64,000 bases of DNA, taken from positions 64,001 to 128,000 of the forward strand of contig DXJO01000041.1 of NCBI GenBank assembly GCA_019057475.1, given 5' to 3'. A model generated the notes under the pieces. The model worked only from the letters and a program-made list of their open reading frames with translations. It was not told where the DNA came from and did not search any database. Below, piece by piece: positions 574 through 18,771 of this stretch. Each line of letters starts with the position of its first letter. The stretch's first letter is position 1. The stretch comes from Candidatus Thorarchaeota archaeon. Lineage in GTDB: Archaea > Asgardarchaeota > Thorarchaeia > Thorarchaeales > Thorarchaeaceae. The position numbers were made by a program, and so were the translations under genes.

Positions 574-861
574 CTACTCGTTTTTTTGGAGGCTGGCATG
601 GAGGGGGTAAAGGCGGTCGACCATCTTGTCGATTATGGCAGTAGATATGACAATGCCAATACCTATAGTAATAGTGCCGATAGTGGAAACGCTAACCCAC
701 TCGACACCAAGCCAGATGATGATGTCCGTGATAAGCGAGCCAATTCCCCACCAAATGATGATGAGGCCCGCCAGCATTACAAGTCGGAGGGCCAACTTCA
801 CACGCCAGTATTCCGGGGTGTATGTGACTTCTTCACCCATCGATGTTACCTCAGGAATCAC
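574..861 (-). CDS. Small two-TM membrane protein
   Basis: Two hydrophobic segments, co-oriented with 161..529. Confidence 0.55.
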   Translation of the reverse strand: MIPEVTSMGEEVTYTPEYWRVKLALRLVMLAGLIIIWWGIGSLITDIIIWLGVEWVSVSTIGTITIGIGIVISTAIIDKMVDRLYPLHASLQKNE

Positions 862-1035
862 CTATGTTGTGCCGTGGTTTCTGACGAAAAAAGCCCGTCG
901 TGGTTGTTAGGGCGATGTAAGCATATAAGTATGAAGAGATACTCGGATTCGTACTAGAACTACTTCCGGCCATCCACTAGGACAAGTGGGACAACTTGCA
1001 GGTGATTGACAAAATCACAAGTCACTCCACAATTC

Positions 1036-1041
1036 TTTTAA
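1036..1041 (+). promoter_or_regulatory. TATA box of tRNA-Ala
   Basis: TTTTAA 38 nt upstream of the tRNA; similar boxes lie 33 nt upstream of tRNA-Phe, -Val and -Gly(GCC). Confidence 0.55.
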
Positions 1042-1073
1042 CCGTTCTCTTGGGATTTGCGAACTAACAACAT

Positions 1074-1181
1074 GGGCCGGTAGTTCAGCCTGGACGCGAC
1101 TTCACTCGCGAAGCCGCGGGGACCTAGAATGCCTCCTTGGCATGGAGGAGGTCGTGAGTTCAAATCTCACCCGGTCCACCA
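1074..1181 (+). tRNA. tRNA-Ala(GGC) with ~30-nt D-loop intron (~1095-1124)
   Basis: Acceptor GGGCCGG/CCGGTCC with G3:U70; anticodon arm CCTCC-TTGGCAT-GGAGG; T arm GTGAG-TTCAAAT-CTCAC; encoded CCA; extra hairpin cgcg..cttc/gaag..cgcg in the D loop. Confidence 0.93.
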
Positions 1182-1187
1182 TTTCTT

Positions 1188-3896
1188 CTATTCCAATGAC
1201 CCCTCTTTCTGAAGTTGCCTTCTTACTCTCTCTACGTCATCAGGTCTTTCCGCTAGCCAACTCTTAACCTTGTCAGATTTCTTCGGGTCGTTGGGTGGAG
1301 CAAGTAATGCCCATCTAATTGCATCATCCTTGGACTTGGTCTTTGCCACCCATTTCAGTGAGATTCTACCAGTTCCTTCATACAATGTAATATTCTCTGC
1401 ATAGATATGTATCTCAATGCCCAATTGCTTTGCCAAAGTCGCTTCATCATCTAACAACTTGCTTCGTTTGGTTTCTACGATTGATAATGCAGTTCGAGCA
1501 ACTTCCGATTCGGATTGCTCCTCAATTCTTGAAATCGGTATGAAGATATGCCCTCTCACCTTATCCCTTCTTACATTTTCCATACCACTCAAAAAATCAA
1601 TCTCTTTCTGCATGAATCCGGGTTCCAGTTTATATTTCACATCGTTACTTCCAGAATTGAGTACAATAGTCCGACTCCATCTGAAACCGGCATAGTGTCC
1701 GAATGATCCGTCCTCTGAAATCAAGTCTTCCAAATATGCTCTACTGGATTCGAGAGTTCCATTCCTCACAGATTCTACAAGCCGTTCATTTTGAATGGGC
1801 TTATCACCAACTGTAAATCCCCAGTAAATGAAAGCCTTGCCCACTGGTCGTGGGAGCAACATTTTGGAACATTCACTCGCTTCATTTGGCACCTGGGTAA
1901 ATGATATGTTTCCGAAGCATTGAAACTGCTTCTCTACTATTCTTATTCTATCAGCATTAGCCTCAGTGTATTGTAGCTGACCATCTGCTCCAAGCCAACA
2001 ATCGCTATTGACAACTGCACCTAACCGAGCTCGCAGAATCTCCAGTTCTTTTCCTCTGAGAAGTTTTGGATGAGGAATTCCACCGCGCCCGTTCTTCCCT
2101 GTGACCTTCTCAATCCCATCCTCAAAATCCCGTGGCGAAGCTCCCAAAATGTTGCATTGTAGATGCAAGACCTCTCCCATTGCACGTGATTGACCGCTCT
2201 TTATCCTAATCTGACTCGCGGAATCATCTGACACCATCTGCCGAATCAGTTTATTGAGATGTTGTAGTCTGGAGTAACTACCCTCATCTAGTTTGAGTCT
2301 ATCTCCAACTCTTTCTACTATGCTCGCAAGGTCTTGGCTTTTGAAGTGGAAGTAATGGTCAGCCCATACATTGATGAGATCATCGGATGTCTTGTTTGGA
2401 GTCCAGACGTAAATTCTGTTGTCCACCACACCCAACCGAATGTTTCGGTCAGATTCACTCAACCCTAGACGGTCCTGCAAAGCCGCTTCAACCTCTGTGT
2501 GGTTGGCTTCTAGAGCTTCTTTGAAGTGCGTCAATCTATCCTTGTTCAATCCCCCGGAGTTGAGTTCCAGATATGACACCTTGACCTTGGTGTCGATTGA
2601 CTCTCTATGCAGTTCCTCAGCAACATCAGTTAGTGTCTTGAGGGAATCTGATTCATTGTCACATCTCGATAGAGCTTCAAGTAGTTTGGTTAATCTAATT
2701 TCATGAACAGTTCTACTTGATAACCCCGGAAATTCTACATGTCCAATATCTCTCACAACCGCTCGCCTTTCTCTCTGTAGGTAGTCATTCAACCTTTCAT
2801 GCGCCCATTCTTTCACGATACGGTCTTCTTCGAGCCTTCGAAGAGTAGCGACGGATTCCGGTTCCTTCCCCGACCTATAATCACTGATCCGTTGTTGAAT
2901 CACTTCATGAGTCTTAGCCAGCTGTTGCTGCGTCTTTGACTTGCTATCCTTGACATCCAAATAGACACCAGCTCGCCTATAGGACTCCTGGGAATTTTTC
3001 CATCCTCGTAGATGCGGATATGTTTCCAGCAATCTGTCAATGTCGGTCATTGTTTCTATTCTGACTTCTGGGGAATGACCAACATCTCTTTCATATGCAA
3101 GATGCAACTCCTTCTTCTCAATGAATGATAGAAGCTTTGGAGTATGTCTTCGACTGCTTTCGTCTGATTCAAAATACTGTCTTATCCTGCTATACTCCTT
3201 CTCGAAGTTCTCCCTATAGCGAAATTCTGGGTATCTCTTGAGCGCTCGGTCAAAATCGTCTATTGAACGAATTACCCTGACTTGTCCGACATCTTTCTCT
3301 CTCTTGGTCATCTTGGATTCAGGTCGTCCCGTTCTCAGCCTGTGATGTTGCTGTTCCTTTGAATCCTTCCGAGTTTCCGACGCCTTTTTGTCTTCCTTGG
3401 CGTCTGTACCTGAAGACCGAAACCGCTTTTCCTGTGCGGACTCAACGCTAGAGGCTGACTCTCGCTTGGTTTTCTTGGTCGGTTTGCTTTGCTCCTCTCG
3501 TTCTTGGGAATCCTTGGTTTTTTCTTCCGAGCTATCAGCACTCCTGCGAGCAACTGAGAATCTGAAGGCTTCAGCAATGGTTCTTAGCAAGTCCCTCCCC
3601 GAGTCCTTCACTTCGGAAGTAGAAAACCGGCTTGGACGTTTTCTATTTCCGTTGGGAAACATATGCTTCCACTCACGTTCAACCCACTCATCGAACTTCT
3701 TCCTGTCGACCAAGCACGCATCTGACACGACAGGCTTGTGGTCTTTGGGAAGGTCACCGTGAAGGTGCTCCTTCTCTCTCTTCTTCAGTTTCTGTTTTCT
3801 TTGGAACTCCTGAGCAGCTTCTGTCAGTTTAGATGCTAGCTCCCTCCTAAGCCGCGCCTTGGTCTTTGATTCAATCCCTTTGAATCGGGATCCCAC
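1188..3896 (-). CDS. 902-aa protein: charged N-terminus, internal repeat, HTH, C-terminal tandem LAGLIDADG-like domain
   Basis: LGAVVNSDCWL and YLEDLISEDGSF resemble two LAGLIDADG helices; TQQQLAKTHEVIQQRISDY is HTH-like; repeat I.S/T..D.DR.L..YP..R...N. Confidence 0.65.
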   Translation of the reverse strand: MGSRFKGIESKTKARLRRELASKLTEAAQEFQRKQKLKKREKEHLHGDLPKDHKPVVSDACLVDRKKFDEWVEREWKHMFPNGNRKRPSRFSTSEVKDSGRDLLRTIAEAFRFSVARRSADSSEEKTKDSQEREEQSKPTKKTKRESASSVESAQEKRFRSSGTDAKEDKKASETRKDSKEQQHHRLRTGRPESKMTKREKDVGQVRVIRSIDDFDRALKRYPEFRYRENFEKEYSRIRQYFESDESSRRHTPKLLSFIEKKELHLAYERDVGHSPEVRIETMTDIDRLLETYPHLRGWKNSQESYRRAGVYLDVKDSKSKTQQQLAKTHEVIQQRISDYRSGKEPESVATLRRLEEDRIVKEWAHERLNDYLQRERRAVVRDIGHVEFPGLSSRTVHEIRLTKLLEALSRCDNESDSLKTLTDVAEELHRESIDTKVKVSYLELNSGGLNKDRLTHFKEALEANHTEVEAALQDRLGLSESDRNIRLGVVDNRIYVWTPNKTSDDLINVWADHYFHFKSQDLASIVERVGDRLKLDEGSYSRLQHLNKLIRQMVSDDSASQIRIKSGQSRAMGEVLHLQCNILGASPRDFEDGIEKVTGKNGRGGIPHPKLLRGKELEILRARLGAVVNSDCWLGADGQLQYTEANADRIRIVEKQFQCFGNISFTQVPNEASECSKMLLPRPVGKAFIYWGFTVGDKPIQNERLVESVRNGTLESSRAYLEDLISEDGSFGHYAGFRWSRTIVLNSGSNDVKYKLEPGFMQKEIDFLSGMENVRRDKVRGHIFIPISRIEEQSESEVARTALSIVETKRSKLLDDEATLAKQLGIEIHIYAENITLYEGTGRISLKWVAKTKSKDDAIRWALLAPPNDPKKSDKVKSWLAERPDDVERVRRQLQKEGSLE

Positions 3897-6455
3897 TCAA
3901 ACCCCTCCGCTCTCGGGCAGAGTCAAGCCCGATTGCAAGTTATCACCCACTAGCTTGGCCACCAAGTCACGGTCCGGCGGATTGGAGGGTGCTCCAAGGA
4001 TCTCAACTGAACGTTTCAGGAGAACCCAAGCGAACTCAATCGGGCTCAGGTTGGGAACCTGAAGGCTGGCCGCGTAGAATGCAATCACCTCTTCGACTCG
4101 GTGTGCTGTATCGTCCTGGCCCTTGACGCCTATTGATGCGAGGTACAGTCTGCGAAAATCATCATCCTGAACCACATCTTCAACCAGAAGTGCTAGTTGG
4201 ACTATGTCATCGCCGTTGGTTCTAGGCTCAAGTTGCGGCGCTCTTGGTGTTGCTGCAAAATCTGGATGTGTATCATAGAAGGGCTTCATTCTTCTTCTCA
4301 CATCATCATCTGTCCAATTGTGTTTCATGTCCGGATGAAACTCAGGGTCATAGAACACCTTTACCTTGGTCGGAACATCGTCAGAAGGCAAACGTAGAAC
4401 AATTTCCCCATTCTTCAGAACGCCTATGTGCCTTGCCTGCTCCGGCGTACAGCCTGTTTCCAGACCAAGCAAGTTCCAATCCTCTGGACTCGTTAAACGA
4501 TGTACAATCTTCGTATTGCAGGTCTTGAGAGCATCACGCGATAGACGCGCGGGGTTCTGGTCAGCTATCACAAGCCCGAGTCCAGAACTTCTAGCTTCTG
4601 CAAGCAGGTTCAGCAGCTGGTCCAGAACTTGTCTTCTTGAAACTGCGCCCTCGCTCATGTCGGCAATTCTGGGCAGTTCCTCAAGGAAACTATGCGCCTC
4701 ATCAATCACAAGCAGATTGCGGAGCTTTTTCGCCGGACCAAGCTTGTCAAAGAATTCGTAAACACGGATGATAAGAAGACTAAGCATAAGGGCCTTGAAG
4801 CTAGGGTCACCAATGTGCTTCAGCTCAATGATAGTTGGCTTTGAGAGCAGCTCATCGATTGGTAAGTTCCTTTCAGCGTTGAGAATTGCCGCACGCGATT
4901 GGTCACAGAGATCCTGAGCTCTTGCTACAATAGCGCCTTCGAAGTCTTTCTTGAGTTCCGCACCATATCTGAGATTTCGTGAGTAGGTTTCTGCTTCCTC
5001 TAAAAACATGTCCAGCGTGATGGGTTTTCCTGGACTGTTGTTGAGCAAATCCCATCCATTATGCTTGTACGTCCGATTTATCACCTTGCGTAAATGATTG
5101 GCGAGAATACCGTAAAGTGGCCATGCAGCCAAGAAACATGAATAGAGCAAGTCAATGTGAAGTTGAACTGGCACATTCACGTCAATCAGGAACGGATTAT
5201 GGCGGTAGGGAGCCACATCCTCCCGGCCCACCGTGAAGACGCGCATCTCAGGAATGGCACCCATGAGAATGCGTGCATCGGTTTTCACCGGCTCAATCAA
5301 CAGACTAGGAATTCCGTTCCTCCATGCGTCGATGACAATCCTGTTCTTTGTAGTGCTCTTTCCTGACCCTGACATTCCTACGATGGCCGTGTGGAGTCTA
5401 AGTTGCTCCATCTCAATGAGTTTCGTTCGTGACTTGTCAACAGTGTTGTGTCGGAATACATGACCGAGAGCGATACGACCAGTTTGGAATTCTAGGATCT
5501 CTGATGTCGATTGTGTTGCTTTGGCGCCAGATGTTGAAAATGATGCTGGGCTGCCTACTCTTGTCCCAACTTCGACACTGGGGACCTCAACCAATGAAAC
5601 CGCTTCTTCCGGCAGCAGTTCAGTTGTCATCCTCCTCCTTTCTAGCATGAGCGTCTTTCGAATCACGTTTCGGGCAATCTTACCTGAGAGAAACCTAACC
5701 TTCATCCTGGCGTTTCTGTGGCTGGATGAGAGTGCTGCAAGCAATGCATTCACAGCAGTTCTCAGCTTCTCTTCCGAATCCGGTCGATCCCAGAATGCCA
5801 ATGTGATTTGACATTTCAGAACGCGATTCGAGATTGACCTCCCATAGTTTCTCTCAAGATGTTTGAGGTTCATCTTGGCGTTTACATCAGCTTGTGTCGC
5901 AGTTTCTTGACCCCCCAGCCAAGTCTGAGTCGTTTTTTGCCTTTGGAGGCCCTCCAAAGCAGACCTGTAGCGCTTCTTTGCAAGAATTCGCCTAGCCCTA
6001 CTTGGCCTCGCAGGAACCATCCAGACTTGGTATAATGAATTACCTTCGAAGTTGACCATAATCTCTGTCATTGCCTGCAATGCTTGGACAGCCGGCTGGG
6101 GAACTCCGGTCAATAACGCAGCATTTGCTTGTCCAGCCACCAAAGGGCACCCAACTTCGGATAAGGACTGAACCACGAACTCAGGGAAGTGCGCTGCAAA
6201 GCTCTCCTTGATGACCTCCATATTCGACCTACTACCTCTTGTAACGTAGAGCAATCGAGCATTCCCTCCTGACCCTTGAATCCTGAATCCAGTTGGGACA
6301 TCCGTGTGTGAAAGAGAACTTAGGAATCTCTCAAGCTTGACATGCGTCGGACTGGAAGCCTTTTTCTCAAGATGCTTCATGGCATGCTCGAAGTAGGACC
6401 TAGGAATCTCAGTAATCTCGATTGCATACACTTGGTTCCTGTGGTTCTTTTCCAA
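3897..6455 (-). CDS. HerA/FtsK/VirB4-like P-loop ATPase
   Basis: Walker A GMSGSGKST, Walker B LLVIDEAH, EARSSGLGLVIADQNP and NTKIVHRL motifs; its TGA directly abuts the GTG of the next gene. Confidence 0.85.
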   Translation of the reverse strand: MEKNHRNQVYAIEITEIPRSYFEHAMKHLEKKASSPTHVKLERFLSSLSHTDVPTGFRIQGSGGNARLLYVTRGSRSNMEVIKESFAAHFPEFVVQSLSEVGCPLVAGQANAALLTGVPQPAVQALQAMTEIMVNFEGNSLYQVWMVPARPSRARRILAKKRYRSALEGLQRQKTTQTWLGGQETATQADVNAKMNLKHLERNYGRSISNRVLKCQITLAFWDRPDSEEKLRTAVNALLAALSSSHRNARMKVRFLSGKIARNVIRKTLMLERRRMTTELLPEEAVSLVEVPSVEVGTRVGSPASFSTSGAKATQSTSEILEFQTGRIALGHVFRHNTVDKSRTKLIEMEQLRLHTAIVGMSGSGKSTTKNRIVIDAWRNGIPSLLIEPVKTDARILMGAIPEMRVFTVGREDVAPYRHNPFLIDVNVPVQLHIDLLYSCFLAAWPLYGILANHLRKVINRTYKHNGWDLLNNSPGKPITLDMFLEEAETYSRNLRYGAELKKDFEGAIVARAQDLCDQSRAAILNAERNLPIDELLSKPTIIELKHIGDPSFKALMLSLLIIRVYEFFDKLGPAKKLRNLLVIDEAHSFLEELPRIADMSEGAVSRRQVLDQLLNLLAEARSSGLGLVIADQNPARLSRDALKTCNTKIVHRLTSPEDWNLLGLETGCTPEQARHIGVLKNGEIVLRLPSDDVPTKVKVFYDPEFHPDMKHNWTDDDVRRRMKPFYDTHPDFAATPRAPQLEPRTNGDDIVQLALLVEDVVQDDDFRRLYLASIGVKGQDDTAHRVEEVIAFYAASLQVPNLSPIEFAWVLLKRSVEILGAPSNPPDRDLVAKLVGDNLQSGLTLPESGGV

Positions 6456-6704
6456 GATGGTCTACCGTAGGTTGGTCTGGAGCTGGCCTAAAGAACACCA
6501 CAAAAGGTGACTTGAACGTGCAGGCACGAGAGATGTTCTGGCCTATCCGTGAGTAGTATCAATCCTGCTCATAAGCCCCTGAAAGGGACATCTACCAGTC
6601 TGAGTTATTTACGAGTCGAACCTGACGAGTTCCTCTAGTTCGCCCAGACCATCGAACTCGGAATGAGTTATATCAACCTACAATAGAAATGGAAGGGAGT
6701 AAAA

Positions 6705-7280
6705 ATGGAAGATATCCAATGGGTAGTCAAGCATAGGGATGAGATAAACAACTGGTACTCCGACCTTGGCGTATTTGGGGATGACGCACTCTATGAAGAT
6801 GGAGATAGTAAAGCCTACTATGAAAGCTATGTTGTCAATTATGTAGCAGCGAATGCAGAGAAATTCACAGGAAAGCCGCCCAATCATATCTGGCATGAGT
6901 TGGATGTGCACGATTTCAGATTGAAAGAAATTGAAACAGATCCTAATGTAAAACCCTGGTGGAAGGGTCGTGTTAAACCAGATTTGTTATTGCAGTTTGA
7001 CGATGCGATTTGGGTGATCGAGGTCAAATTCGGTTTCAAAAGCCCTAATCTCGAAGCAGTCCCGACGATGAAGGGTCCGAAGTCCTGCATCGATCAAGTC
7101 AGTATCTACGTAAAGAGGCTTGAAAATATGATGACTCTGGGATGGTTTCCAAACATGGAGATTCATCCGGTTGTAGTCTGGGCTTTTTGGGAAAAACGAG
7201 TACGCCCGTCCGAGATGTACATGGACGCAATCCGGTCAGAGTGGCCCTATTTGCGAGAAGACCCGTATCCGAAACCATAG
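6705..7280 (+). CDS. PD-(D/E)XK nuclease (RecB-like)
   Basis: KPDLLL...IWVIEVK followed by Q...Y (DQVSIY). Confidence 0.7.
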   Translation: MEDIQWVVKHRDEINNWYSDLGVFGDDALYEDGDSKAYYESYVVNYVAANAEKFTGKPPNHIWHELDVHDFRLKEIETDPNVKPWWKGRVKPDLLLQFDDAIWVIEVKFGFKSPNLEAVPTMKGPKSCIDQVSIYVKRLENMMTLGWFPNMEIHPVVVWAFWEKRVRPSEMYMDAIRSEWPYLREDPYPKP

Positions 7281-7470
7281 AAGGAGGCCACTTGCCCCTA
7301 TGACTGCGGGAATCGAAGTCATAACAGGGTTGATCTACCGGCCCATGTTGTTGGTTCGCAATTCTTGATGGAACGGCTAAAAGAATTGTGAAGTGAAGCG
7401 AGGACCTTGGTCATCGAAACTTAAGGAATCTATCTTTGATGGTTTTAGCTGCTCAATTATGCCTTGGCTT

Positions 7471-8899
7471 CTAGTTGATTTGCTTCTCAATGTGATTTAG
7501 GAATTTAATCAGATTGTTGAGATTCTTTCTGATGTCTAGCAATGAATCCCTATCTGTGAAACTTCCCAAGTGATGAACATCAACGTTGAAATCATTCTTC
7601 AGTTTCTCCAAATCAGCCTTTAGCTTGTCTGTTTTCTTTCTATTTGTAGTGGGAGAAAATTTGATAATCTCGTCAGGGAATGCTATCCAGAAATTGGTAA
7701 GAAGCTCACTAAAGGACTTCGATCTATATTCACCTCGTCGGTCTTTGTATAGGTAAAGGCCGGAATCGTTCTTCCCGAACTTTCGCTGCAGTATCGATAT
7801 CACAAGATTCTCTAGAAGTTTCCGTGATAGAAAAGCCGTGCAGACATAGCATCCAGCACTAAAGGCATTGTTAATCTCCTCTACGAGGTCGTACATCAAT
7901 CCTCCAAAGTCAAGAGGGTTGATATAGAAGAATGTCTGTTTTCGGGATACTGACTCCTTTTCATAAGTGGATTCTTGCACTAATGTGTCAACAAACTTAA
8001 TGTTCCCGAGAAAACGCTGAACCCATTTTGGCATTGGCCTGAAAGATGCATATTTAGCTGATGCCTGTAGCATCACATCGTTATCGATTGAAAGAAGTTG
8101 AAAGTTATCGCAATGAAATAAGGGAGTGATGTCTATCTCCTGAAGCTGGTTATGATTCAGTTTCAATTCTCTCATGAGTTTGCAATTCGCTAAAGGCGAC
8201 AGGTCTATCTTCCGAAGTCGATTGGATGAGAAATCTAGCTTCTCGAGTGAGTGTAATCCTGAAAGCGGTTCGAGTTCAATCGATTCCAACTTATTTGCTG
8301 AACATGATAACGTTCTCAATGTTTTGATATGCCTTAATGGAACAAGGTCAATTATCTTAAGGGAATTGCGTCCAATATTTAGATTCATCAATCTCCTAAG
8401 CTTCGAGAGAGGCTCTAAGTTGACTGTTTCTAATTGATTATTATAGAAATAAAGTGATTCTAGATGAGGTATGTTTCCAAGTGAGTTGAAATCTAAATCA
8501 GTCAGCATATTCTGAATCATATTTATGGTTTTCAGATTAGGATGACCTGCAAGTCCGGATAGATCAATTGCAGTGAGCTTATTCTCAGTGAGATCAAGCG
8601 ATTCAAGCCGATCACATCCATTCAATGAATCCAACTTTGCATCCTTGATTCGATTAAATGAGATATTGAGATGTTCTAACCGTTTGCATTGTTCTATGCC
8701 GTGAAGATAGAGATATTCTAAATAATTGCCACCGAGGTCTATGCTTTTTTAAAAAGCGGAAATTCGAGAAATGATTAAATTCGATTGCTGTGATTTTCAT
8801 CCCCCTTAGAGATATGTATTCCGCACTCTCATCAAACTCTTTAGATTCCTGTTCACCTGAGCTTGTCCGGAAATATACTTTCCACCTAATTACGATCAC
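7471..8899 (-). pseudogene. Leucine-rich repeat protein with C-terminal DUF4145/HEPN-like domain, split by a 1-nt frameshift near 8745-8755
   Basis: ~22-aa LRRs (L..L.L..N.L..IDL.PL); upstream ORF 8654..8899 joins in frame if one A is removed from TTTTTAAAAAA; C-terminal EINNAF..GCY....LSRKLLE. Confidence 0.75.
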
Positions 8900-8960
8900 T
8901 CCCTATGTTCCCGTAGAATACACTCTATCAACCCTAGTTGTAACTCAGAGGTCATTTTTA

Positions 8961-11798
8961 TCATTTCAATTCCTTAAGAATCAAGTTGTCTATTCGTTTC
9001 TTGGATTCCAACTCAGAGAGCCCCCAGCATTCAATGTAAGTCAAATTCAAGAACTGGAGCGCTTTCATGACATCCCTACGGTGATGTTCAGAAATCTTGG
9101 TCGCAGCTTCATGGAACATTTTGATGGCTTTAACGAAGTTTGCTTCCGCTTCTTTGCATTTGCTCAACCCATGATAGGTTTTTCCAAAATTTGCATATAT
9201 CATGGCCATTTCAACAAGATGGGTTTCTCTTGAGTTTTCAAGTAGCTTCTTCCTAATCTCCATTGATTCAAGTAGGTATTTTCCTGCCGTCCCCCATCTC
9301 TCCAAACAGTGCAGTGCAATGGCGATATTATTCAAGTTCGCTGCAATTGCAGCTCCATAGGCATTTCCTTCCTCAGGAAGTGATCGCCAAATATCTAGTG
9401 CTTCCAAGTGAAGCTCCAATGATTCTGAGCATTTTCCGATATCAGTGTAGAGAAACCCAAGAGCATTAAGTGCATTCGCAAGATTCATTTCAAAGAAACT
9501 GGATACTTCTGCATCTAGTTCTCTATAGATGGCTATGCTCTCTCTCAAGCGTTCTTCGCTTTCGTGTAGAAGTTTTGGATTTCCTGAACTGATTCCTAAT
9601 CTATGACAAGCGATTCCAAGTGCATTCAGAGTGTCAGCAACCGATGAGATATGAATATGAAACGGAAGCATTTCGTCAAGAGTTTTACGTATATCAAGAG
9701 TCTCTGTAAGCATGGAAATACTTGAATTGAGATTGCCAGAATCCTTTAGAAGTAGTCCAAGGTTGTGGAGAATCGTCCCTCTCAAAGAGAGATAGATTTC
9801 AGGGTACTTGTCTAGTTGCTGCTGAACAACATCTAAAGCTCTCCTAAAATGTAACTCTCCTTGTTTGTAGTTGCGTAGTCCATAATAGGATAAACCTAGA
9901 CTGTTATGGACTCCAACCAAATTATAGAAGAACTCTTCTTCTTTTCTGGCTGAAAGGTTTTCAAAAAGATTCAATGATTCATTCAAGGATTTCAGAGACT
10001 CGGAGAATCGACCTAGTCGACGATAGAGATTTCCTAGATTGTTCAGGTTTCCAGCTTTACCTTCCTGAGAAATGTCGGGATGTGAGTCAATGAATTGGTT
10101 GTTGATTGCCAATGCATCTTTCAAGTATGTTTCTGCATCTGTAAGTTGCCCTTTACTTCGGCATAACAATGCGTAATTGTTCAGCACGCCTGCCACATGC
10201 AACAATCTTTCATCTTTTGGTTCAATTGGTTCAGTTTTATATCTGCTAATAGCTTCCACAAATTGCACACTGGCGTCACCCAGAACACCAATGTCCAAAT
10301 AGGATTGACCTAGCATTCCCTTCTGAATTGATTTGAACCAATCTGATCGAAATTCAACAGATTCGAGCAGTTCAGATATTTCTTCATACTTGTGCCGCAT
10401 TCGAAAACTTCGCAGGATTGGTCGAAGCTCTTGCATCGCATGGTTTTCCGAGTATAATGCTGCAGAAGAAACAGCTAGTGACAGAAAAGATAGGTTTCCA
10501 CTCTCTTTGTAGTGTTTCATAAGAATTGAACTTGCTTCTAGGATGATTTCAGGCGTGTCTTCATTGACCATCCTGATGGCAAGCTCGCGTGCAATCTCAT
10601 GCATTCTGAAGTATGGCTCTTCAAAAGTAATGACACTCAATCTAATGAAATCCCTCCAAATCTGCGGGTCTAGAGATGGGCAAATTAGCCGAGCTATATT
10701 TCTGTCAAAATGCGGAATTAGGGCTAATCTACTAGCGATTGGAGATAAATGTCGAAGTCCGTCAAAGAGAAGCTTCCATGATCTCTCATATACTTCTGAT
10801 ATGGTATGTTGTTCAAAATCGGTCAACTCTGAAATGACTAAAGCATCTCTCTCAAAGGCATCACAGAAAGCATGAATTACAAACGGTGACTCGTGACTTG
10901 ATAGTATGATGATATTTCGTATCTCTTTAGGTATTCCTCTTTTTTCAAGAATTTTGTTGCAGCTTTTGCGATCAAGTTGTTGTATTTCTTTGTCCTGCCT
11001 TGATACCCCCAGCACTTGAGGTGGAAGGGGTAGCGTTCTTGCTGCAAGTACTCCTAGACTTCCCTTTACCTTGGTCAGAAATAAATGCCACAGTTCACCT
11101 TCACTTAAACTGACCACTTCATTTCCAACTTTAGAAGGAAAACGCATGAAATCATCCAAATGATCAATGGAGTCCAACATGATTAGGAATGGTAGGTCCT
11201 TCTCCGTTACGGCATTATTCAAATCTTGGGCTAAACCATCAAGAAAAAGTTGAATAGCGAACCCTGGGTTTACTCTAAGAAGCTCTAGGAATCGTCGACC
11301 ATAATCCTTGCCAAGTTGTTCCTTCAACCAAACGCCCACTTCTCCAAAATGCATGTCTACAAGTTTATGCAGTTTCTTTCCGGTAGTAGACATGGCTACT
11401 GCGATTTTGGCAATCTGGCTTAAAGGGGGAATCCAATCCACTAAGTCTTTGATCCATCGCTTGCTTTCAGGCCTATGAGGTTCAATTCCCTTGACTAATC
11501 GAGTTCTAAGATCCAGCAGTCGATTGGATATGCTTGTCTTAATCCCCTTAGCATTGATTTCTCTGACTAGTGCCCTGTATCTTGAGTAGAAATCTCCATG
11601 GTCTCTGAAATTAACTAGAAATGAGTATTCATGCCTATGTACCAATGCCTTGAGAATGGCACTCTTTCCAATTCCTCCAATTCCGAAGATACCAACCATC
11701 GCGGTTTCTCCATCCTTGCAGGCATTCATAGTATCCAATATCCATTCAATCGTGTCCGTTCTACCCACAAAGAAAGTATCCTTTTCTAGTTGGGACAT
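8961..11798 (-). CDS. STAND-like NTPase with C-terminal TPR array
   Basis: FVGR..., Walker A GIGGIGKS, Walker B LIMLDSID, RMHEIARE (MHD-like), many LNNLG/LNALG TPRs. Confidence 0.85.
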   Translation of the reverse strand: MSQLEKDTFFVGRTDTIEWILDTMNACKDGETAMVGIFGIGGIGKSAILKALVHRHEYSFLVNFRDHGDFYSRYRALVREINAKGIKTSISNRLLDLRTRLVKGIEPHRPESKRWIKDLVDWIPPLSQIAKIAVAMSTTGKKLHKLVDMHFGEVGVWLKEQLGKDYGRRFLELLRVNPGFAIQLFLDGLAQDLNNAVTEKDLPFLIMLDSIDHLDDFMRFPSKVGNEVVSLSEGELWHLFLTKVKGSLGVLAARTLPLPPQVLGVSRQDKEIQQLDRKSCNKILEKRGIPKEIRNIIILSSHESPFVIHAFCDAFERDALVISELTDFEQHTISEVYERSWKLLFDGLRHLSPIASRLALIPHFDRNIARLICPSLDPQIWRDFIRLSVITFEEPYFRMHEIARELAIRMVNEDTPEIILEASSILMKHYKESGNLSFLSLAVSSAALYSENHAMQELRPILRSFRMRHKYEEISELLESVEFRSDWFKSIQKGMLGQSYLDIGVLGDASVQFVEAISRYKTEPIEPKDERLLHVAGVLNNYALLCRSKGQLTDAETYLKDALAINNQFIDSHPDISQEGKAGNLNNLGNLYRRLGRFSESLKSLNESLNLFENLSARKEEEFFYNLVGVHNSLGLSYYGLRNYKQGELHFRRALDVVQQQLDKYPEIYLSLRGTILHNLGLLLKDSGNLNSSISMLTETLDIRKTLDEMLPFHIHISSVADTLNALGIACHRLGISSGNPKLLHESEERLRESIAIYRELDAEVSSFFEMNLANALNALGFLYTDIGKCSESLELHLEALDIWRSLPEEGNAYGAAIAANLNNIAIALHCLERWGTAGKYLLESMEIRKKLLENSRETHLVEMAMIYANFGKTYHGLSKCKEAEANFVKAIKMFHEAATKISEHHRRDVMKALQFLNLTYIECWGLSELESKKRIDNLILKELK

Positions 11799-11953
11799 CT
11801 TCGGTCACCAGGTGAAGAAACGCTTATCTTTGAGGACGAGTATCAAAATGCATTTCTCTGCAAAACAAGAGAGATGGCAATGCTTGCGAGTCCTCAAGAC
11901 AGTTGCTAATACCGAAAGCATTTCATTCTTCCTGATTTCGGTCTTCTAGTTCC

Positions 11954-12913
11954 TTGATTATTGGTTCTATGCACATCCATGAATCTTTATGTCAATCCAC
12001 TGAAGCAACAAACGAGGGTTATGAATTGCTAACTGACAACCGACAGACGATGTTGGACAGAAATGTGGATTATTGCAGACAAGTAGTGGTTGTTGTAATA
12101 GCTGCAGTTGGAGCATACTGGTCCACAACTCTGGCATCGGAGGTTTTGCTACCATGGACTCTGTTCCTGTTTGGAGGCGCCATTATTTACACTCTCGTTC
12201 TGCCATACAAAAGAGCATCATTGATAGAGGGCCGTTGGGGTCTTCCAGCCAGAGTCAAGGCACTTACTGTTGTCTTGATGGGATCCCCCTTCTACCTGTT
12301 TCCCTCAATTGCAGTACTCTTGGACACTTCTTTGGCGGAATCCCTGCCCATGTTTCACTACCAAATCGCAACATTCCAGTTTGAAACGGCATTCAGCTCC
12401 TTCATACCACTAGTAATGAGTTTCCTATACGGAGGCTTATTCGCGTCAATACTCACTGCGCGTGTTGGTATTCGGTTCATTCTCAGGAAATTTCGCTATG
12501 GAGAGGCAGAAATAAATGAAACGCTTAGGTATGCAACAGACAGAACTGGTCGCATAGAACTTGGCTTTTCTCTTGCGATTGTCTTCGCTGCTCTTTATGT
12601 GATAGCAGGATGGTATCGCCTTGACGTTTCAAGCACGTCACAGTATTACTTCTTTGGTGCTTTTCTTCTAGTGATGATGTTAGTCTTCTATGGGTACTTC
12701 TTTGTAACCTATACACCATCTGTATGTCCCAAGTGGACTCGAAGACTCCTAGAGGCGATTCTTCTTCTCTCAATCTTTGCAACAATTATCGGCTACCTAT
12801 TGGGGATACTCTTCGCATTAGCGGCAATCACTCTTCTCCATTTCCTTTCCAACAAAGGCCGCCGCAAGCTTGAGCTTAGAGCGTTTGTTGAGGAGAAACA
12901 AGAGGAGAATTAG
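11954..12913 (+). CDS. Multi-pass membrane protein
   Basis: About 8 hydrophobic segments; start uncertain. Confidence 0.65.
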   Translation: MIIGSMHIHESLCQSTEATNEGYELLTDNRQTMLDRNVDYCRQVVVVVIAAVGAYWSTTLASEVLLPWTLFLFGGAIIYTLVLPYKRASLIEGRWGLPARVKALTVVLMGSPFYLFPSIAVLLDTSLAESLPMFHYQIATFQFETAFSSFIPLVMSFLYGGLFASILTARVGIRFILRKFRYGEAEINETLRYATDRTGRIELGFSLAIVFAALYVIAGWYRLDVSSTSQYYFFGAFLLVMMLVFYGYFFVTYTPSVCPKWTRRLLEAILLLSIFATIIGYLLGILFALAAITLLHFLSNKGRRKLELRAFVEEKQEEN

Positions 12914-13014
12914 ATGAGAAAAAGAAAAGGGAAAGAGACAAGCTTGATCAGGACCGGTGGACGTATTACTTCTACAAACTGTATCCAAGCTTAGAATATG
13001 GCATATACGGTGCG

Positions 13015-13230
13015 GTGACTTTGGGGATTCTTGGCTTCTCAGTTCTTTCACTTGTTGGATACCAAATTGGATTTGTTGAGTTGCTTCTTTTCTTGCTTCT
13101 GATTAGTGGTATCTATTTCGGACTTCCTAGGGCGTACTTCTTACTGAAAGTTCATCGCGGAGAGTTTGATGATATCGTAAGAAGGCTCGAATCCAAGCGG
13201 GTTGAAGGAGCCTTTGACCTGCTCAGTTAG
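13015..13230 (+). CDS. Small membrane protein (frame open further upstream without a canonical start)
   Basis: Two TM segments; stop lies just before the first tRNA fragment. Confidence 0.45.
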   Translation: MTLGILGFSVLSLVGYQIGFVELLLFLLLISGIYFGLPRAYFLLKVHRGEFDDIVRRLESKRVEGAFDLLS

Positions 13231-13236
13231 TCATTG

Positions 13237-13284
13237 TCCTTGGCATGGAAGAGGTCCCGAGTTCGAATCTCGCTCGGTCCACCA
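13237..13284 (+). repeat. tRNA-Ala 3'-half copy 1 (att-like)
   Basis: TCCTTGGCATGGAAGAGGTCCCGAGTTCGAATCTCGCTCGGTCCACCA; 42/48 identical to 1134-1181. Confidence 0.92.
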
Positions 13285-13341
13285 ATCATCTTCATAGTTG
13301 TTTCGGGTTTCATCCACGATTCCTAACATGAAGCCGGGCTA

Positions 13342-14256
13342 TTGCTAGCACTCTTTTATAGTACAATGGGATCAATAGATTGTGAATCAAATCATATCCA
13401 GACAATAAGGGGGCGGCTTCTAATAACGAGTCAACGCGAAAATGATTGGGGAAAAATCGTTGCTAATAAACAGGTCCAGACGTGGTTGAAGAATGATGAG
13501 GAGCATGTACTTCCAATCATGATTAAGGATTTCAGGGGCCTTTCACTTGGACCGGCCAAACTTATTCCTACCTATGACACCAAAGAGATCCCTAAAGCGC
13601 TCAAATCAATAGATGTAGAATTACTACGCAACCAAAAGGGTGGCTGCTTGTTAATCAAGAGGAAAGCTGTTGGCTCGCAGACATTGTTTCCAAAGCTTCC
13701 CACTCCCACGAAATCACATTCCGGACTCCCCTTCCAGTCAATCCCTGAATTATCTGTACTGAGAAAACCAAAATCCCGACTTGTAAATGAAGAAACAGGA
13801 ATACACTTAGCTTGGACCATGGGCATCCTTCAATCTTTTTTCATGGAGGTTTTCTCTCCGTACGAGCAATTTGCAGTTGGGGGAAGATTGAAGACGCGTG
13901 TTAAGGGGAAGTTCATGATATTGGGTCAAGATTATCCCGTTGACGCTCTTGTCGAAGCTGATGGATACTTTGAATCTCGGGATAGAATAATCGTATTGGA
14001 GGCAAAACAATCAGACAACAATCAATTTTGTGCAGACTTTAGCATCCATCAACTCCTACTACCTCTCATGTTGGTAAGAGGAATCACTAAGAAGATGAGT
14101 AGTGGGATGTTCTTAGACTATTCAATTAGCAGAAGTGATGGACGAGCAACAGTAAACTACAGGATTTACCACTATGATATCCCTGGAAGCGATTCATCGA
14201 TTGATCCGTTTAGTTACAGAGCAGGCTCGTCAAAGGAATATTTGATAACCATTTAG
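13342..14256 (+). CDS. Type II restriction endonuclease-like PD-(D/E)XK protein
   Basis: VEADGYFE...IIVLEAKQ...DFSIHQL motif. Confidence 0.65.
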   Translation: MLALFYSTMGSIDCESNHIQTIRGRLLITSQRENDWGKIVANKQVQTWLKNDEEHVLPIMIKDFRGLSLGPAKLIPTYDTKEIPKALKSIDVELLRNQKGGCLLIKRKAVGSQTLFPKLPTPTKSHSGLPFQSIPELSVLRKPKSRLVNEETGIHLAWTMGILQSFFMEVFSPYEQFAVGGRLKTRVKGKFMILGQDYPVDALVEADGYFESRDRIIVLEAKQSDNNQFCADFSIHQLLLPLMLVRGITKKMSSGMFLDYSISRSDGRATVNYRIYHYDIPGSDSSIDPFSYRAGSSKEYLITI

Positions 14257-14304
14257 CCTCTTTGGATAACTTAGCACTTGTGACGCACTCTGCGTGCATC
14301 CAAA

Positions 14305-14344
14305 ATGGAAGAGGTTGCGAGCTCGAATCTCGGGTGGTCCACCA
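14305..14344 (+). repeat. tRNA-Ala 3'-end copy 2
   Basis: ATGGAAGAGGTTGCGAGCTCGAATCTCGGGTGGTCCACCA; 31/40 identical to the tRNA 3' end. Confidence 0.85.
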
Positions 14345-14440
14345 CCTTCTTCTATTTCTAAAGGAAACTGGACGGTTCAAGTTTCCAAGCACCTCGTCAT
14401 TCTTATGGGAACTAATCCATACATGTAGTGGTACTGAATC

Positions 14441-14923
14441 ATGCTCTTCGTCACAGTTGCAGGTCTACTCTCATGGTTTATTCCAAGAAGAAGAGTGCAG
14501 TGGAAATGGTCTCTTGTAGCCTTTCTCCTAGTGACTTTGACAGTTTCATTATGGGTCATAGATGATGTCCGAGCAGCCGGTGTGGTACGTGATGTCACTC
14601 GTTCAGAAGGAGACCTTGTCTACTCCATTGTATATCTCAACAGCACTGCATTGTTCCCGTTTGTACTGCAGAAGCATCACAATTGGACCGCAAGGTCATT
14701 CGTATACTATATTCGGTTCTTGAACCATGATGGTAGCCTAGTTTCTCAGACAAGGCCAGGCCCCGATCAGAGTGAGTTTATGCATATGGCTTTGTTTGCA
14801 ATATCGATTTCCCTCTGCTTTCAAGGATTCATAATAGCTCTGCTTGCAATTCTAGGGGCGGAATTCATCACATGGTGGCGAAAACCGAACAGAATGGATA
14901 TTCTGCGTAGTATTACAGAGTAA
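14441..14923 (+). CDS. Membrane protein
   Basis: Three TM segments; sole gene between repeats 2 and 3. Confidence 0.6.
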   Translation: MLFVTVAGLLSWFIPRRRVQWKWSLVAFLLVTLTVSLWVIDDVRAAGVVRDVTRSEGDLVYSIVYLNSTALFPFVLQKHHNWTARSFVYYIRFLNHDGSLVSQTRPGPDQSEFMHMALFAISISLCFQGFIIALLAILGAEFITWWRKPNRMDILRSITE

Positions 14924-14942
14924 CTCTCTTATCTTCCAGTTG

Positions 14943-14970
14943 GCGAGTTCGAATCTCGCCCGGCCCACCA
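14943..14970 (+). repeat. tRNA 3'-end copy 3
   Basis: GCGAGTTCGAATCTCGCCCGGCCCACCA; 24/28 identical; intact T arm. Confidence 0.9.
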
Positions 14971-15002
14971 ATCGTTTTCGTAGTCGTTCCTTTCAACGAA
15001 TT

Positions 15003-15467
15003 TCATCCACGACTCCGCTCATGAAGTCGAGTTCGAATTCTGTCAAGCAACAGGCGTATGTCTATTCGGTAGGGCGAGAAGAGATAAAGCAGTCCTAGAG
15101 CAACCCAGACAATCCAGATTCCACAATGTATGAACATTATGTAGAATACCTGGTCAATAAGATATCCATGTGAAAGCGCCTGATACCCCCCGGACGGAGC
15201 TGGAATGGGAAGGAATCTCCCGGGAGGGAGGCTTGACCACATCAACCCCTCTTCGAGGCTCCACCACCAACCACCAATAAACCAAGCGGATATCAAAATC
15301 CAAATGTAGTAGACCAAAATGAGAGCAACCATGACGCGGCGTATCCGGGCAGCCCTGTCCACATGACGCCTCACTAGCAGGTTTTGATTCCGGAACTCCA
15401 CATTCAGAGTATTCGATTCACTCATCGATATCTCACAATTCCAGAGCAATGATACTCTACGAGTCAA
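15003..15467 (-). CDS. Membrane protein
   Basis: Two TM segments; sole gene between repeats 3 and 4. Confidence 0.6.
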   Translation of the reverse strand: MTRRVSLLWNCEISMSESNTLNVEFRNQNLLVRRHVDRAARIRRVMVALILVYYIWILISAWFIGGWWWSLEEGLMWSSLPPGRFLPIPAPSGGYQALSHGYLIDQVFYIMFIHCGIWIVWVALGLLYLFSPYRIDIRLLLDRIRTRLHERSRG

Positions 15468-15531
15468 TTGCCCAGCTTTGGCAATAATCTTCCTATTTCA
15501 GTAATTGATTCCAGTAGACGACTGTATGCAC

Positions 15532-15552
15532 CGAATCTCGGCGGGTCCATCA
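15532..15552 (+). repeat. tRNA 3'-end copy 4 (degenerate)
   Basis: CGAATCTCGGCGGGTCCATCA. Confidence 0.65.
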
Positions 15553-15592
15553 CACTTTTCAAATCTTGGACATCTGCATGTCTTGAAAAGCC

Positions 15593-16195
15593 ATGAAACA
15601 CAAACTGCTTCTCGAATTGCCAGAAATCCTAGAAACAGATGCACTGGTCATTAGGAAATACAGGAGAGAAGATGGAAAGCAATACAATGATCTGTTTGAG
15701 AGGAATAACAATCGAGATTTGTTGAAAGAACACGTTGATGAGGCTACAGAAATCACTACAACGGAGAAAGCTGAGATCAGGATAAGAGAACATGCTGCAG
15801 AATGGGAAGCACGAACAAGGTTTGTGATGGGCGTATGGTTGAAGAAAGAAGAACTGTATATTGGCCAGATTTGGATTGAGCCCAAGAATTGGGAAGTACC
15901 GTCATTCGAACTCGGCTATTTCTTGGATGACGGATATCAGGGACATGGCATTGCATTTGTAGCAGCTAAACGTTCTCTAAGGTTCCTCTTCGATGAACTT
16001 CACGCTCACAAAGTGATGATTCTGACACGTGACACAAACGAAAAGAGCTGGAAACTAGCTGAACGACTTGGTTTTGTGAGGGAAGGTCATCTAAGGGAAT
16101 GCGGCGTTGGGAGTGGCAAACGTTGGGGTCAGTATCATTATGGAATGCTTGTAGGAGAGTACAGGACAAAGCAAAAGGGTACTTCACAGGGATAG
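15593..16195 (+). CDS. GNAT acetyltransferase, RimJ/RimL family
   Basis: ELGYFL...YQGHGIA and NEKSWKLAERLGFVREG.LR motifs. Confidence 0.88.
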   Translation: MKHKLLLELPEILETDALVIRKYRREDGKQYNDLFERNNNRDLLKEHVDEATEITTTEKAEIRIREHAAEWEARTRFVMGVWLKKEELYIGQIWIEPKNWEVPSFELGYFLDDGYQGHGIAFVAAKRSLRFLFDELHAHKVMILTRDTNEKSWKLAERLGFVREGHLRECGVGSGKRWGQYHYGMLVGEYRTKQKGTSQG

Positions 16196-16681
16196 CATGA
16201 TTCAATCTCAAAGGAATCTGATGCTGGCCATCTTATCGCTGATTCCAATCATGTATTCATTCTAAGGGTCGCTAAATTGAAATCGCAAAGTTGTGAAAAA
16301 CACTATAAGTTTTCATGAGCATTAAGAGATTGAGGAGTTTCTTTGCAGCTTGAGATTGTCCCTGAAACCGTTCTCATAAGCGTCTTTGTGGGGACATGCC
16401 TTCTCTTCACACTATACCTGATATTGAAGACATGTTCTGAAAGAAATTTGGTAAGACCTGAACGAAGGGGAGGAACACCGAGGGTTGACGACTTGACCGC
16501 AACACAGAGTGCATATGGGCATGAGGTTTCGTATTCCTCTAGCATCCGTGGGTGTGGATCTTCAGCAGGTCCTTTTCCAATTGGTGGAAGAACAGAAAGA
16601 CTTCCCACAAGGTCGTTTGGAAGCTACACTAAACCGAGAAGGAAATCAAAGAAAAGCTGACTTGTGACTTGAGGAAATCCT

Positions 16682-16711
16682 GGTGCGAATCGAATCTCGC
16701 CCGGTCCAGCA
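16682..16711 (+). repeat. tRNA 3'-end copy 5
   Basis: GGTGCGAATCGAATCTCGCCCGGTCCAGCA. Confidence 0.8.
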
Positions 16712-17029
16712 CTCACTCCTAGGAATTATTGATTTTTCTCACGGTTTCTTTACATAAATGGTTGCTATAATGAGAACAACCGCGACACCAGCTCCAACAA
16801 CTAGAAACATTGTTTGCGAAGGGGGGATTGTGGAGGTTATGGGGGTTGTGGTTTCTGTTGTACTAGTTGTGTATGGCCATTATGCATATCTAGTTCTTGC
16901 CGCATTCATGACAATATTCCACATCTGATGATGACACTAGTAGTATCCTCGGTTCTAACTTTGGGAGTAATCGGAATAGTATTACTAGGAAGATGGTTTC
17001 AGAGGGATGGGGCGACTTCTTGATGGATT

Positions 17030-17836
17030 ATGATAAATAGAAGCAACGCCGAAAGGAATTCTATGAACGAGACTTTGAAGACAATTGATGATCGGAAATC
17101 GTTGAGAGGATATGATTCAAGAGAGATTTCTTCAGAACACAAGAAGTGGATTCTCCACAGTGCTTTTCGAGCTCCTACCGCGGGGAATATGATGCTTTAT
17201 TCCATCATTGAAGTAGCAGATCAAAAGATGAAGGATAAACTAGTCAAGACATGTGACAACCAACCCTTCATAGCCAAAGCCCCCCTTGTGTTATTGTTCC
17301 TTTCAGACATGCAGAGATGGTACGACCTCTTCGAATATTCCAGTGTACCAGACCTATGCAAGGAGCGAAGCATCGAATATGTCACCCCAAAAGAATCAGA
17401 CTTGCTGCTCGCTTCCTGTGATGCACTGATAGCGGCACAAAATGCTGTGATTGCTGCTGAGTCTTTGGGCATAGGTTCGTGCTACATTGGCGACATAATG
17501 GAGAACATAGAGATTCACAGAGAGATGTTTAATCTACCTAAGTGGGTCTTTCCAATAGCGCTTCTATGCTTCGGCTATCCCCGACGGGATGACCGGGATG
17601 ACCGTGAGAAGACACCCCGATTCCCTGAACACTTGGTGTATTTCAAGAACAAATACATCCGAACAGATGGTAAAGAATTCGAGTCAACACTCATGGCTCA
17701 AACCAGGGATAAGGAAGCCATCTTCAAAAAGGCCAAGAACATTGGGCAGTTCATCTATTTACGGAAGACCGGTGCAGACTTTACTACCGAGATGCGTCGT
17801 TCAGTCAAGGTCGCAATTACCGACTGGATTGAATGA
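17030..17836 (+). CDS. Nitroreductase family protein (NfsA/FRP-like)
   Basis: RKSLR, APTAGN, DALIAAQNAVIAAESLGIGSCYIG. Confidence 0.92.
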   Translation: MINRSNAERNSMNETLKTIDDRKSLRGYDSREISSEHKKWILHSAFRAPTAGNMMLYSIIEVADQKMKDKLVKTCDNQPFIAKAPLVLLFLSDMQRWYDLFEYSSVPDLCKERSIEYVTPKESDLLLASCDALIAAQNAVIAAESLGIGSCYIGDIMENIEIHREMFNLPKWVFPIALLCFGYPRRDDRDDREKTPRFPEHLVYFKNKYIRTDGKEFESTLMAQTRDKEAIFKKAKNIGQFIYLRKTGADFTTEMRRSVKVAITDWIE

Positions 17837-17875
17837 ATCAAGAATCGGTGCTAGACTGCGGATTACCAAATCGAT

Positions 17876-18724: not shown

Positions 18725-18771
18725 AGAGAAATTATGTTTCTGATGCATATCCACATAATTATGGTCGAGGC

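Follow-up and report, generated by a model that had tools for sequence, protein, structure and literature searches.

A HerA/VirB4-superfamily ATPase and LAGLIDADG nuclease gene pair of a Thorarchaeota archaeon as a candidate polymorphic nuclease system

Introduction

Why is a DNA motor joined to a protein resembling a homing endonuclease, outside any intron or intein and directly beside a tRNA gene? The question is raised by a locus in a stretch of 64,000 nucleotides (positions 64,001 to 128,000 of contig DXJO01000041.1, assembly GCA_019057475.1) of a Candidatus Thorarchaeota archaeon, hereafter called the window; its genome is G000 in our comparisons. Named homologues also assign the window to Thorarchaeota. 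The locus consists of two minus-strand genes. The first encodes a HerA/VirB4-superfamily ATPase of 852 amino acids (aa; 3897-6455, TTG start) and the second a 902-aa partner (1188-3896, GTG start) with a charged leader, repeats, a putative helix-turn-helix (HTH) and a C-terminal LAGLIDADG nuclease domain. The plus strand carries tRNA-Ala(GGC) at 1074-1181. An initial annotation had proposed a DNA-translocase plus site-specific nuclease module, acting either as mobility machinery for tRNA-targeted insertion or as a new defense pair. From the analysis presented here we consider it about an even chance (a probability near 0.5) that the pair belongs to an undescribed Thorarchaeota polymorphic nuclease system of the toxin-immunity type, in which homing endonucleases serve as warheads.

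Results

The partner protein carries a LAGLIDADG nuclease domain

The two genes are directly coupled, with 0 nt between the TGA of the ATPase gene and the GTG of the partner gene; a GGAGGGG Shine-Dalgarno-like run lies in the 3' end of the ATPase gene, just ahead of this GTG. The partner's stop codon (from 1188) was placed by the initial annotation 6 nt after the CCA end of the tRNA (1181), and this position, like all its other coordinates, was reproduced. A contig from what is probably the source run spans 600-15585 without differences and supports the assembly, though it is not independent of it.

The 902-aa protein had no match in Pfam, PADLOC or NCBIfam and was identified by its fold alone, with language-model features pointing weakly to archaeal LAGLIDADG clusters. 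The structure of aa 500-902 was predicted from 38 homologues (pLDDT 94, pTM 0.91), a check suggested together with the first reading of two LAGLIDADG-like helices, and the LAGLIDADG fold was found. The model shows two alpha-beta-beta-alpha-beta-beta-alpha halves packed via two motif helices, which makes aa ~616-890 (1227-2051, minus strand) a monomeric two-motif domain. The top matches in Foldseek and VIA were all LAGLIDADG proteins, among them PI-PfuI, the TliVMA intein domain, I-Tsp061I and I-DmoI (Z 14.3-17.5, root mean square deviation (rmsd) 2.2-3.1 Å over 161-188 residues). The partner has two acidic metal ligands and two lysines in common with these monomeric enzymes, but differs from them in being free-standing and coupled to an ATPase, in a ~70-aa insertion in the second half and a 615-aa N-terminal extension, in an identity of only 11-14% and in the predicted protein inhibitor of its family. 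By alignment to the motif rather than side-chain superposition, the catalytic residues were assigned as D632 (kept in 164 of 166 aligned relatives), D/E729 (165/166), K/R699 (164/166) and K873 (159/166). Two conserved acids and two lysines are the pattern of active monomeric LAGLIDADG enzymes, and from these residues the partner is probably an active nuclease. For aa 500-902, dN/dS was 0.30-0.36 against alleles 91-94% identical.

Relatives of this domain (type A) comprised 367 cluster representatives at E 1e-10. In the sample searched they were nearly confined to two Asgard families, with 38/59 and 13/19 genomes positive and up to 7 matches each. No relative was found in IMG/VR contigs with the patterns used, which is not proof of absence, and a viral origin is without support.

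The N-terminal part begins with the charged leader and a low-complexity linker (aa 1-200, 3297-3896); K, E, D and R make up 44% of aa 1-300, as the described charged low-complexity N-terminus implied. A duplication follows (aa 199-325, 2922-3302). It had been described as a ~36-aa unit; the duplication is real (score 76, against 52 for the best of 1000 shuffles), but the helical unit is longer, ~57 residues with the 36 aa as its core, and its copies lie at about aa 199-255 and 268-325 with a period of ~70. The proposed HTH at ~aa 320-345 stays tentative, as 2-3 of 19 homologues match HTH_3 or Sigma70_r4 at E~1e-3 and the partner itself has no Pfam match there. The partner is a free-standing open reading frame outside the tRNA and has no Hint domain, in agreement with the annotated lack of intein or intron context.

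The ATPase is an intact motor of the HerA/VirB4 superfamily

The ATPase comprises a ~320-aa alpha/beta N-domain, a single RecA-like motor domain with a helical insert, and a helical C-domain. Walker A (aa 360-368), Walker B (D585-E586), the arginine finger (R622) and the sensor glutamine (Q633) are all present and invariant in the alignments, which bears out its description as HerA/VirB4-like. The closest solved proteins by sequence were HerA motors of defense and repair complexes (PDB, E 4e-16), and the motor superimposed on the VirB4 C-terminal domain and DndH with TM-scores of 0.72-0.74. The top Foldseek matches were full-length VirB4/TrwK proteins with 800-900 aligned columns, but at an rmsd of 16-19 Å and a TM-score of ~0.3. 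No family cut-off was reached in Pfam, PADLOC or NCBIfam: P-loop_TraG scored 23.5 bits, the NCBIfam HerA models 19-44 bits against cut-offs of 800-970, the PADLOC and NCBIfam HerA matches were all weak and partial, and the best archaeal NCBIfam match, CedD, remained far under its cut-off. The N-terminus has the alpha/beta domain and no HAS barrel. The nearest clusters are uncharacterized ~900-aa DUF87 proteins of Bacillota and Actinomycetota.

The window ATPase is without a transmembrane segment, unlike many homologues of ~1020-1180 aa. Most Thorarchaeota homologues have an extra N-terminal part of ~155 aa with about four hydrophobic segments, which is absent in the window's clade, and no membrane genes lie beside the window ATPase. 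Neither the window nor the other loci examined showed relaxase, replication, mating-pair or coupling genes next to the pair. Compared with the congeneric genome G005, dN/dS of the ATPase was 0.13.

The pair recurs and the tip of the partner is exchanged

In 27 of the 28 loci first read, a large partner lies directly behind the ATPase; the 28th locus is at a contig end. The partners start with a charged leader and end in differing modules that resemble homing endonucleases. The tips were grouped as LAGLIDADG type A (the window), LAGLIDADG_3 type B, 15 NUMOD3 repeats followed by HNH, and HTH arrays joined to tandem HNH-like domains, a class recognized by eye from the sequence; some tips fell in no class. 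On a quick tree of 36 ATPases the tip classes were interleaved, with 11 changes (minimum 6), and the starred branches force at least 6 changes for tip A and at least 5 for tip B.

Pairs of closely related loci localize the exchange. G000 and G005, which carry the pair at the same tRNA, have 93% nucleotide identity over 3020-6523 and ~55% over 1188-3020. The breakpoint lies at ~3020 (codon ~292), in the second repeat copy, and synonymous sites are saturated beyond it. A second G000 locus (L059, contig C42) and L049 of G004 have ATPases that are 92-93% identical, partners with the same leader and 82% identity over the first 680 aa, and tips of type A and B, respectively. In L090 and L083 the ATPases are 63% identical and the tips are of type A and HTH/HNH. 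As a descriptive measure, because pairs are not independent, similarity of the leader correlated with that of the ATPase at rho 0.31 and similarity of the tip at 0.05. These comparisons show that the charged leader travels with the ATPase, while recombination exchanges the tip with its DNA-binding and nuclease parts. A third ATPase clade, which has three upstream membrane genes, is likewise followed by close relatives of the tip found in the window.

A cognate acidic protein and orphan cassettes accompany type-A tips

A gene for an acidic protein of ~200 aa, without a Pfam match, was found behind 12 type-A partners and behind 0 of 18 other partners. For a complex of the type-A domain of locus L057 with its cognate acidic protein (not the window proteins), the prediction scored 0.86, against 0.01 for the best control; among reference pairs, 58 of 80 solved ones and 2 of 110 mismatched ones attain the mark applied to such scores. 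At least 65% of contacts were shared between runs, partner pLDDT was at least 85, and the D729 equivalent and strands of the C-terminal DNA-binding saddle lie in the predicted interface. This supports binding of the acidic protein, hereafter the inhibitor, to the type-A active site, with the binding itself only predicted.

Of the 86 genomes of the family, 32 carry the inhibitor gene. Inside contigs, orphan cassettes were found in which open frames of 74-163 aa cover only the last 50-120 profile positions of the tip and are followed by the inhibitor. Inhibitors are also stacked, with three in tandem in L153, and fused, with a 673-aa open frame in G031 (L158:5084-7042) made of three inhibitor-family domains.

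Partner genes are enriched at tRNA 3' ends

The initial annotation had called for a survey of homologous pairs at tRNA genes. Homologous pairs do recur together. Of 60 partner genes, 15 have their end no more than ~120 nt from the 3' end of a convergent tRNA; for ordinary genes, with a distance of up to 450 nt, the count is 9 of 893. These counts come from a handful of distinct tRNA loci and include kin that are not independent. The window's clade is mostly found at tRNA-Ala(GGC), with or without an ATPase: 8 of 10 clade members and window-like solo copies are at tRNA-Ala-type 3' ends or so flagged, and all but one of nine flagged entries have the sequence of Ala(GGC); the loci counted were partly collected through the inhibitor gene, which biases the numbers. 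One member, G133, belongs to another Asgard family but nests in this clade (approximately unbiased test, p 0.002 against keeping its family together) and lies 63 nt before the tRNA-Ala(GGC) of that genome, on its 5' side. Other clade members are away from tRNA-Ala, two of them behind the distant ATPase with three upstream membrane genes.

An empty allele is present in G001, which has the same flank and the same intron-bearing tRNA but no pair; there the tRNA is joined directly to the cassette at 14345, following the tRNA 3'-end repeat at 14297-14344 (plus strand). The other edge of the two-gene unit is at ~6520, at the end of a ~68-nt upstream leader (6456-6523, minus strand), and is common to G005, G006 and contigs of other sediments, which diverge beyond it. 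In G005, 150 bp that are 93% identical to 1144-1293 lie 25 kb down the array behind an older tRNA-end repeat; because of this remnant, the window's tip must once have headed the G005 array too.

Downstream of tRNA-Ala(GGC), tRNA 3'-end repeats separate gene cassettes. Over 13237-19307 the order and number of cassettes differ in G001, G005 and contigs of other sediments, with joints at the repeats, and from these alignments the array appears to be actively shuffled. No PF00589 match and no integrase were found on the window's contig, and seven tyrosine recombinases above the Pfam cut-off lie on other contigs of the genome. Contig C9 of G000 has tRNA-end repeats without such a pair.

Discussion

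The coupling of the genes, the fold, the conserved catalytic residues, the swapping of tips, the cognate linkage of the inhibitor, the orphan cassettes and the enrichment at tRNAs were established computationally. Polymorphic toxin loci are marked by exchangeable tips, cognate inhibitors and orphan cassettes (PMC3482391, PMC3113570), and these marks make a toxin-immunity system our preferred reading. In such a system the hexameric motor would engage the leader and move the partner, which in membrane-anchored versions would leave the cell at a membrane complex. The tip would cut kin or invading DNA at a long, specific site within a conserved locus, and the inhibitor would protect carriers. The window copy would be a reduced variant with neither membrane anchor nor inhibitor. 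Since its genome has no inhibitor, the window nuclease must spare its own chromosome. Most likely it would do so by being sequence-specific, the adjoining tRNA-Ala(GGC) allele not presenting the site; alternatively, the leader or the ATPase may keep the nuclease inactive. The copy may work within the cell, or it may make use of the membrane-anchored paralogue encoded on contig C42.

Several observations weigh against a toxin-immunity function. No inhibitor gene was detected adjoining the window pair or elsewhere in G000 (96% complete). It adjoins 0 of 10 members of the window's clade, a count biased by the partial collection of loci through the inhibitor itself, and 16 of 19 full-length tips without ATPase are also without it. 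Because the inhibitor is missing in G000, in this clade and from most solo tips, the nuclease is not simply or indiscriminately lethal to its carrier. The window ATPase, as read from its sequence, has neither a transmembrane segment nor adjoining membrane genes. All identified tips resemble homing endonucleases and have DNA-recognition arrays, whereas classical toxins use promiscuous nucleases, and LAGLIDADG is not mentioned in the available part of the text of PMC3482391. Bacterial neighborhoods are mixed, with a toxin/immunity pair in 1 of 6, and export, toxicity, motor-leader contact, cleavage and the target are steps that we infer.

The alternative that we take most seriously, although tentatively, is a selfish homing or drive element with its own DNA pump. 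Its free-standing LAGLIDADG protein would cut a module-free allele at or near tRNA-Ala(GGC) when cells exchange DNA, repair would copy the module in, and the motor would move DNA in a Ced- or conjugation-like manner; the small acidic protein would be a regulator and a tip swap would retarget the element. It is a serious rival because the clade tracks tRNA-Ala(GGC), G133 included, because G001 has an empty allele and because the nuclease spares its carrier. It would also fit the wider excess of partner genes at convergent tRNA 3' ends, the catalytic residues kept by solo genes without inhibitor, and the VirB4/TrwK and CedD matches of the ATPase. It leaves unexplained, however, the orphan tip and inhibitor cassettes, the stacked and fused inhibitors and the leader that tracks the ATPase. 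Some clade members are away from tRNA-Ala, the pair has no relaxase, replication or mating-pair genes next to it, no Ced match was obtained for the membrane genes found with the third clade, and G133 is a metagenome-assembled genome in which mis-binning is possible. The toxin-immunity and homing readings are not mutually exclusive. We regard as unlikely an intracellular defense complex like HerA-NurA, Sir2-HerA or DUF4297-HerA, in which a motor without a membrane anchor would pass foreign DNA on to the nuclease and the inhibitor would be an antitoxin removed by infection. The best PDB matches of the motor are of this kind, the anchor-less clade often borders defense islands (type I and II restriction-modification, OLD/TOPRIM, Cap4+SMC), and PD-(D/E)xK, LRR and STAND-TPR genes adjoin the window pair. 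The HerA family matches, however, are weak and partial, the HAS-barrel N-terminus is missing, most family members are membrane-anchored, and orphan inhibitor arrays would not be expected; the lack of relatives in viral contigs is neutral here. The label "new defense pair" of the initial annotation came closer than its alternative, but it misses the polymorphic tip, the cognate inhibitors and the orphan cassettes.

It is improbable that the family is functional and the window copy only a decaying hitch-hiker. The copy has neither inhibitor nor anchor and relatives contain many broken or solo copies; against this, both frames are intact, dN/dS has the values given above for the two proteins, and other sediments contain the same unit of two genes. 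Least probable is that the pair is the recombination machinery building the tRNA-fragment cassette array. The pair does head the array in G000 and G005, the place expected of an integrase, and the G005 remnant of the window's allele lies behind an older tRNA-end repeat. That remnant, however, shows the pair itself to be a displaced cassette; neither protein has a recombinase fold, arrays without the pair occur in G001 and on contig C9, and direct repeats of tRNA 3' ends are the usual footprint of tyrosine recombinases, which are encoded elsewhere in the genome. A role of the pair as the array's integrase is therefore rejected as largely refuted. Of the module first proposed, the coupled motor and LAGLIDADG nuclease, the joint recurrence and the tRNA enrichment stand, and the insertion of cassettes does not; many copies lie at non-tRNA sites.

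Among known systems, the preferred toxin-immunity reading finds its nearest parallel in polymorphic toxins exported by FtsK/HerA pumps (type VII secretion system (T7SS) YueA/EssC, WXG/LXG nuclease toxins and SUKH immunity proteins; PMC3482391, PMC3113570). An FtsK/HerA-superfamily pump, a constant N-terminal part and an exchangeable C-terminal nuclease are common to both, as are, at the family level, a cognate downstream inhibitor, orphan cassettes and poly-immunity genes. The Thorarchaeota family differs in a single motor domain with a VirB4-like N-domain instead of three tandem ATPase domains, in a charged low-complexity leader with no WXG/LXG Pfam match in the partners, and in its homing-endonuclease tips (LAGLIDADG, NUMOD3-HNH), new inhibitor family and archaeal host, the window copy also being without inhibitor or anchor. 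VirB4/TrwK and Ced ATPases likewise have a long N-domain and a motor; many homologues of the window ATPase are membrane-anchored and one clade has three upstream membrane genes. The overall TM-score to VirB4/TrwK is only ~0.3, however, no other type IV secretion system (T4SS) gene is present and the TraC cut-off is far from reached; neither CedA nor CedA1 is matched and CedD falls far under its cut-off, although the membrane genes of the third clade are of similar sizes. HerA-nuclease complexes share the coupling of a motor gene and a nuclease gene, but here the nuclease is downstream and polymorphic, a HAS barrel is absent and the family models are far under cut-off. Like the T-even phage gene segB (compare PMC13096335), which encodes a free-standing homing endonuclease beside tRNA genes, the partner gene stands alone next to a tRNA locus that is conserved, and relatives have empty alleles; it is LAGLIDADG rather than GIY-YIG, cellular and motor-linked. 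By sequence, the family appears to behave as a polymorphic toxin-immunity locus but to fall outside the T7SS, the T4SS, HerA-nuclease defense and intron or intein homing.

Literature searches found no description of this system; a 2019 mBio survey of archaeal polymorphic toxins was outside their coverage, so a prior mention is possible there. HerA, VirB4 or LAGLIDADG modules of this kind go unmentioned in the papers searched on Asgard mobile elements and defense (PMC11529989, PMC13700489), and classical polymorphic toxin systems are reported to be scarce in archaea (PMC3482391). If the toxin-immunity reading is true, a lineage-wide, multi-copy Thorarchaeota system would make kin conflict or drive visible in Asgard archaea for the first time. 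A new role for LAGLIDADG nucleases would be added, together with a natural protein inhibitor that could serve to switch a meganuclease off. Every component is a soluble domain and open to expression and assay with no need to culture the host. A further idea, speculative and rather doubtful, is that an Asgard protein-export motor recruited homing endonucleases as exchangeable, sequence-specific warheads against conserved loci such as tRNA genes. Carriers would be safe through the LAGLIDADG inhibitor or through occupancy of the target, and the system would be a kin-discriminating toxin and a cell-to-cell gene drive at once.

Genomic settings and neighboring genes

The three conserved membrane genes upstream of the third ATPase clade (L194:277-2011, L195:172-1957, L052:3275-5120) encode proteins with ~1-2, 3 and 5-7 hydrophobic segments. 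They had no family match in NCBIfam, Pfam or a PDB sequence search, and thus no sequence match that would support a Ced identity; the largest was present in 10 of 86 genomes. The second pair of G000 (L059:7036-12509, contig C42) consists of a membrane-anchored 1065-aa ATPase and a 1457-aa type-A partner. It ends on a methylmalonyl-CoA mutase gene without the first ~200 codons, of which two intact paralogues (58%) are present elsewhere. In L054, L075, L081, L082 and L086, an anchor-less ATPase with a type-B partner has its convergent end at the same acyl-CoA dehydrogenase gene, and differing restriction or other defense genes lie upstream of several of them. A second, shorter DUF87 gene was found among small genes of unknown function upstream of the ATPase in L081 (386-5882). 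In the second Asgard family, type-A genes without ATPase (L182, L185, L187, L188) converge on the same gene for a 401-aa hydrogenase/complex I-like subunit, identified by eye. Among six bacterial neighborhoods of ATPase relatives, one has an HNH nuclease and an SMI1/KNR4 immunity gene behind the ATPase; another relative precedes a 1135-aa charged protein.

The tRNA-Ala(GGC) gene of the window was missed by ARAGORN, and its 3' part was detected by Rfam. Its 31-nt D-loop intron (1094-1124) is absent in G005, and close relatives have 0, 1 or 2 introns of differing sequence; in these relatives the DNA near the tRNA-Ala promoter is common, and exchange affects the body of the tRNA. "Collaborative homing" with the tRNA intron was considered and is not supported, as the same intron is found in G001 without the pair and a 91%-identical allele adjoins a tRNA with two different introns.

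An inverted copy of the tRNA promoter and the first ~20 nt of tRNA-Ala lies at 7315-7396 (minus strand; 79% identity to 1022-1103). The 5' strand of the acceptor read backwards resembles the 3' end, so that recombination may take place at the tRNA 5' end too. An inverted tRNA end with a remnant of a LAGLIDADG C-terminus is present upstream of the tRNA in G005. Outside the conserved pair, 6705-7280 (plus strand) encodes a 191-aa PD-(D/E)xK-like protein with a weak NERD match and a paralogue on contig C16. The AT-rich region 7471-11798 (minus strand), which is absent from the related populations compared, encodes an LRR protein whose C-terminal domain is helical, and a STAND NTPase-TPR protein. 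Farther along, the 668-aa protein encoded at 34858-36864 (minus strand) reads, by eye, as a type IB topoisomerase.

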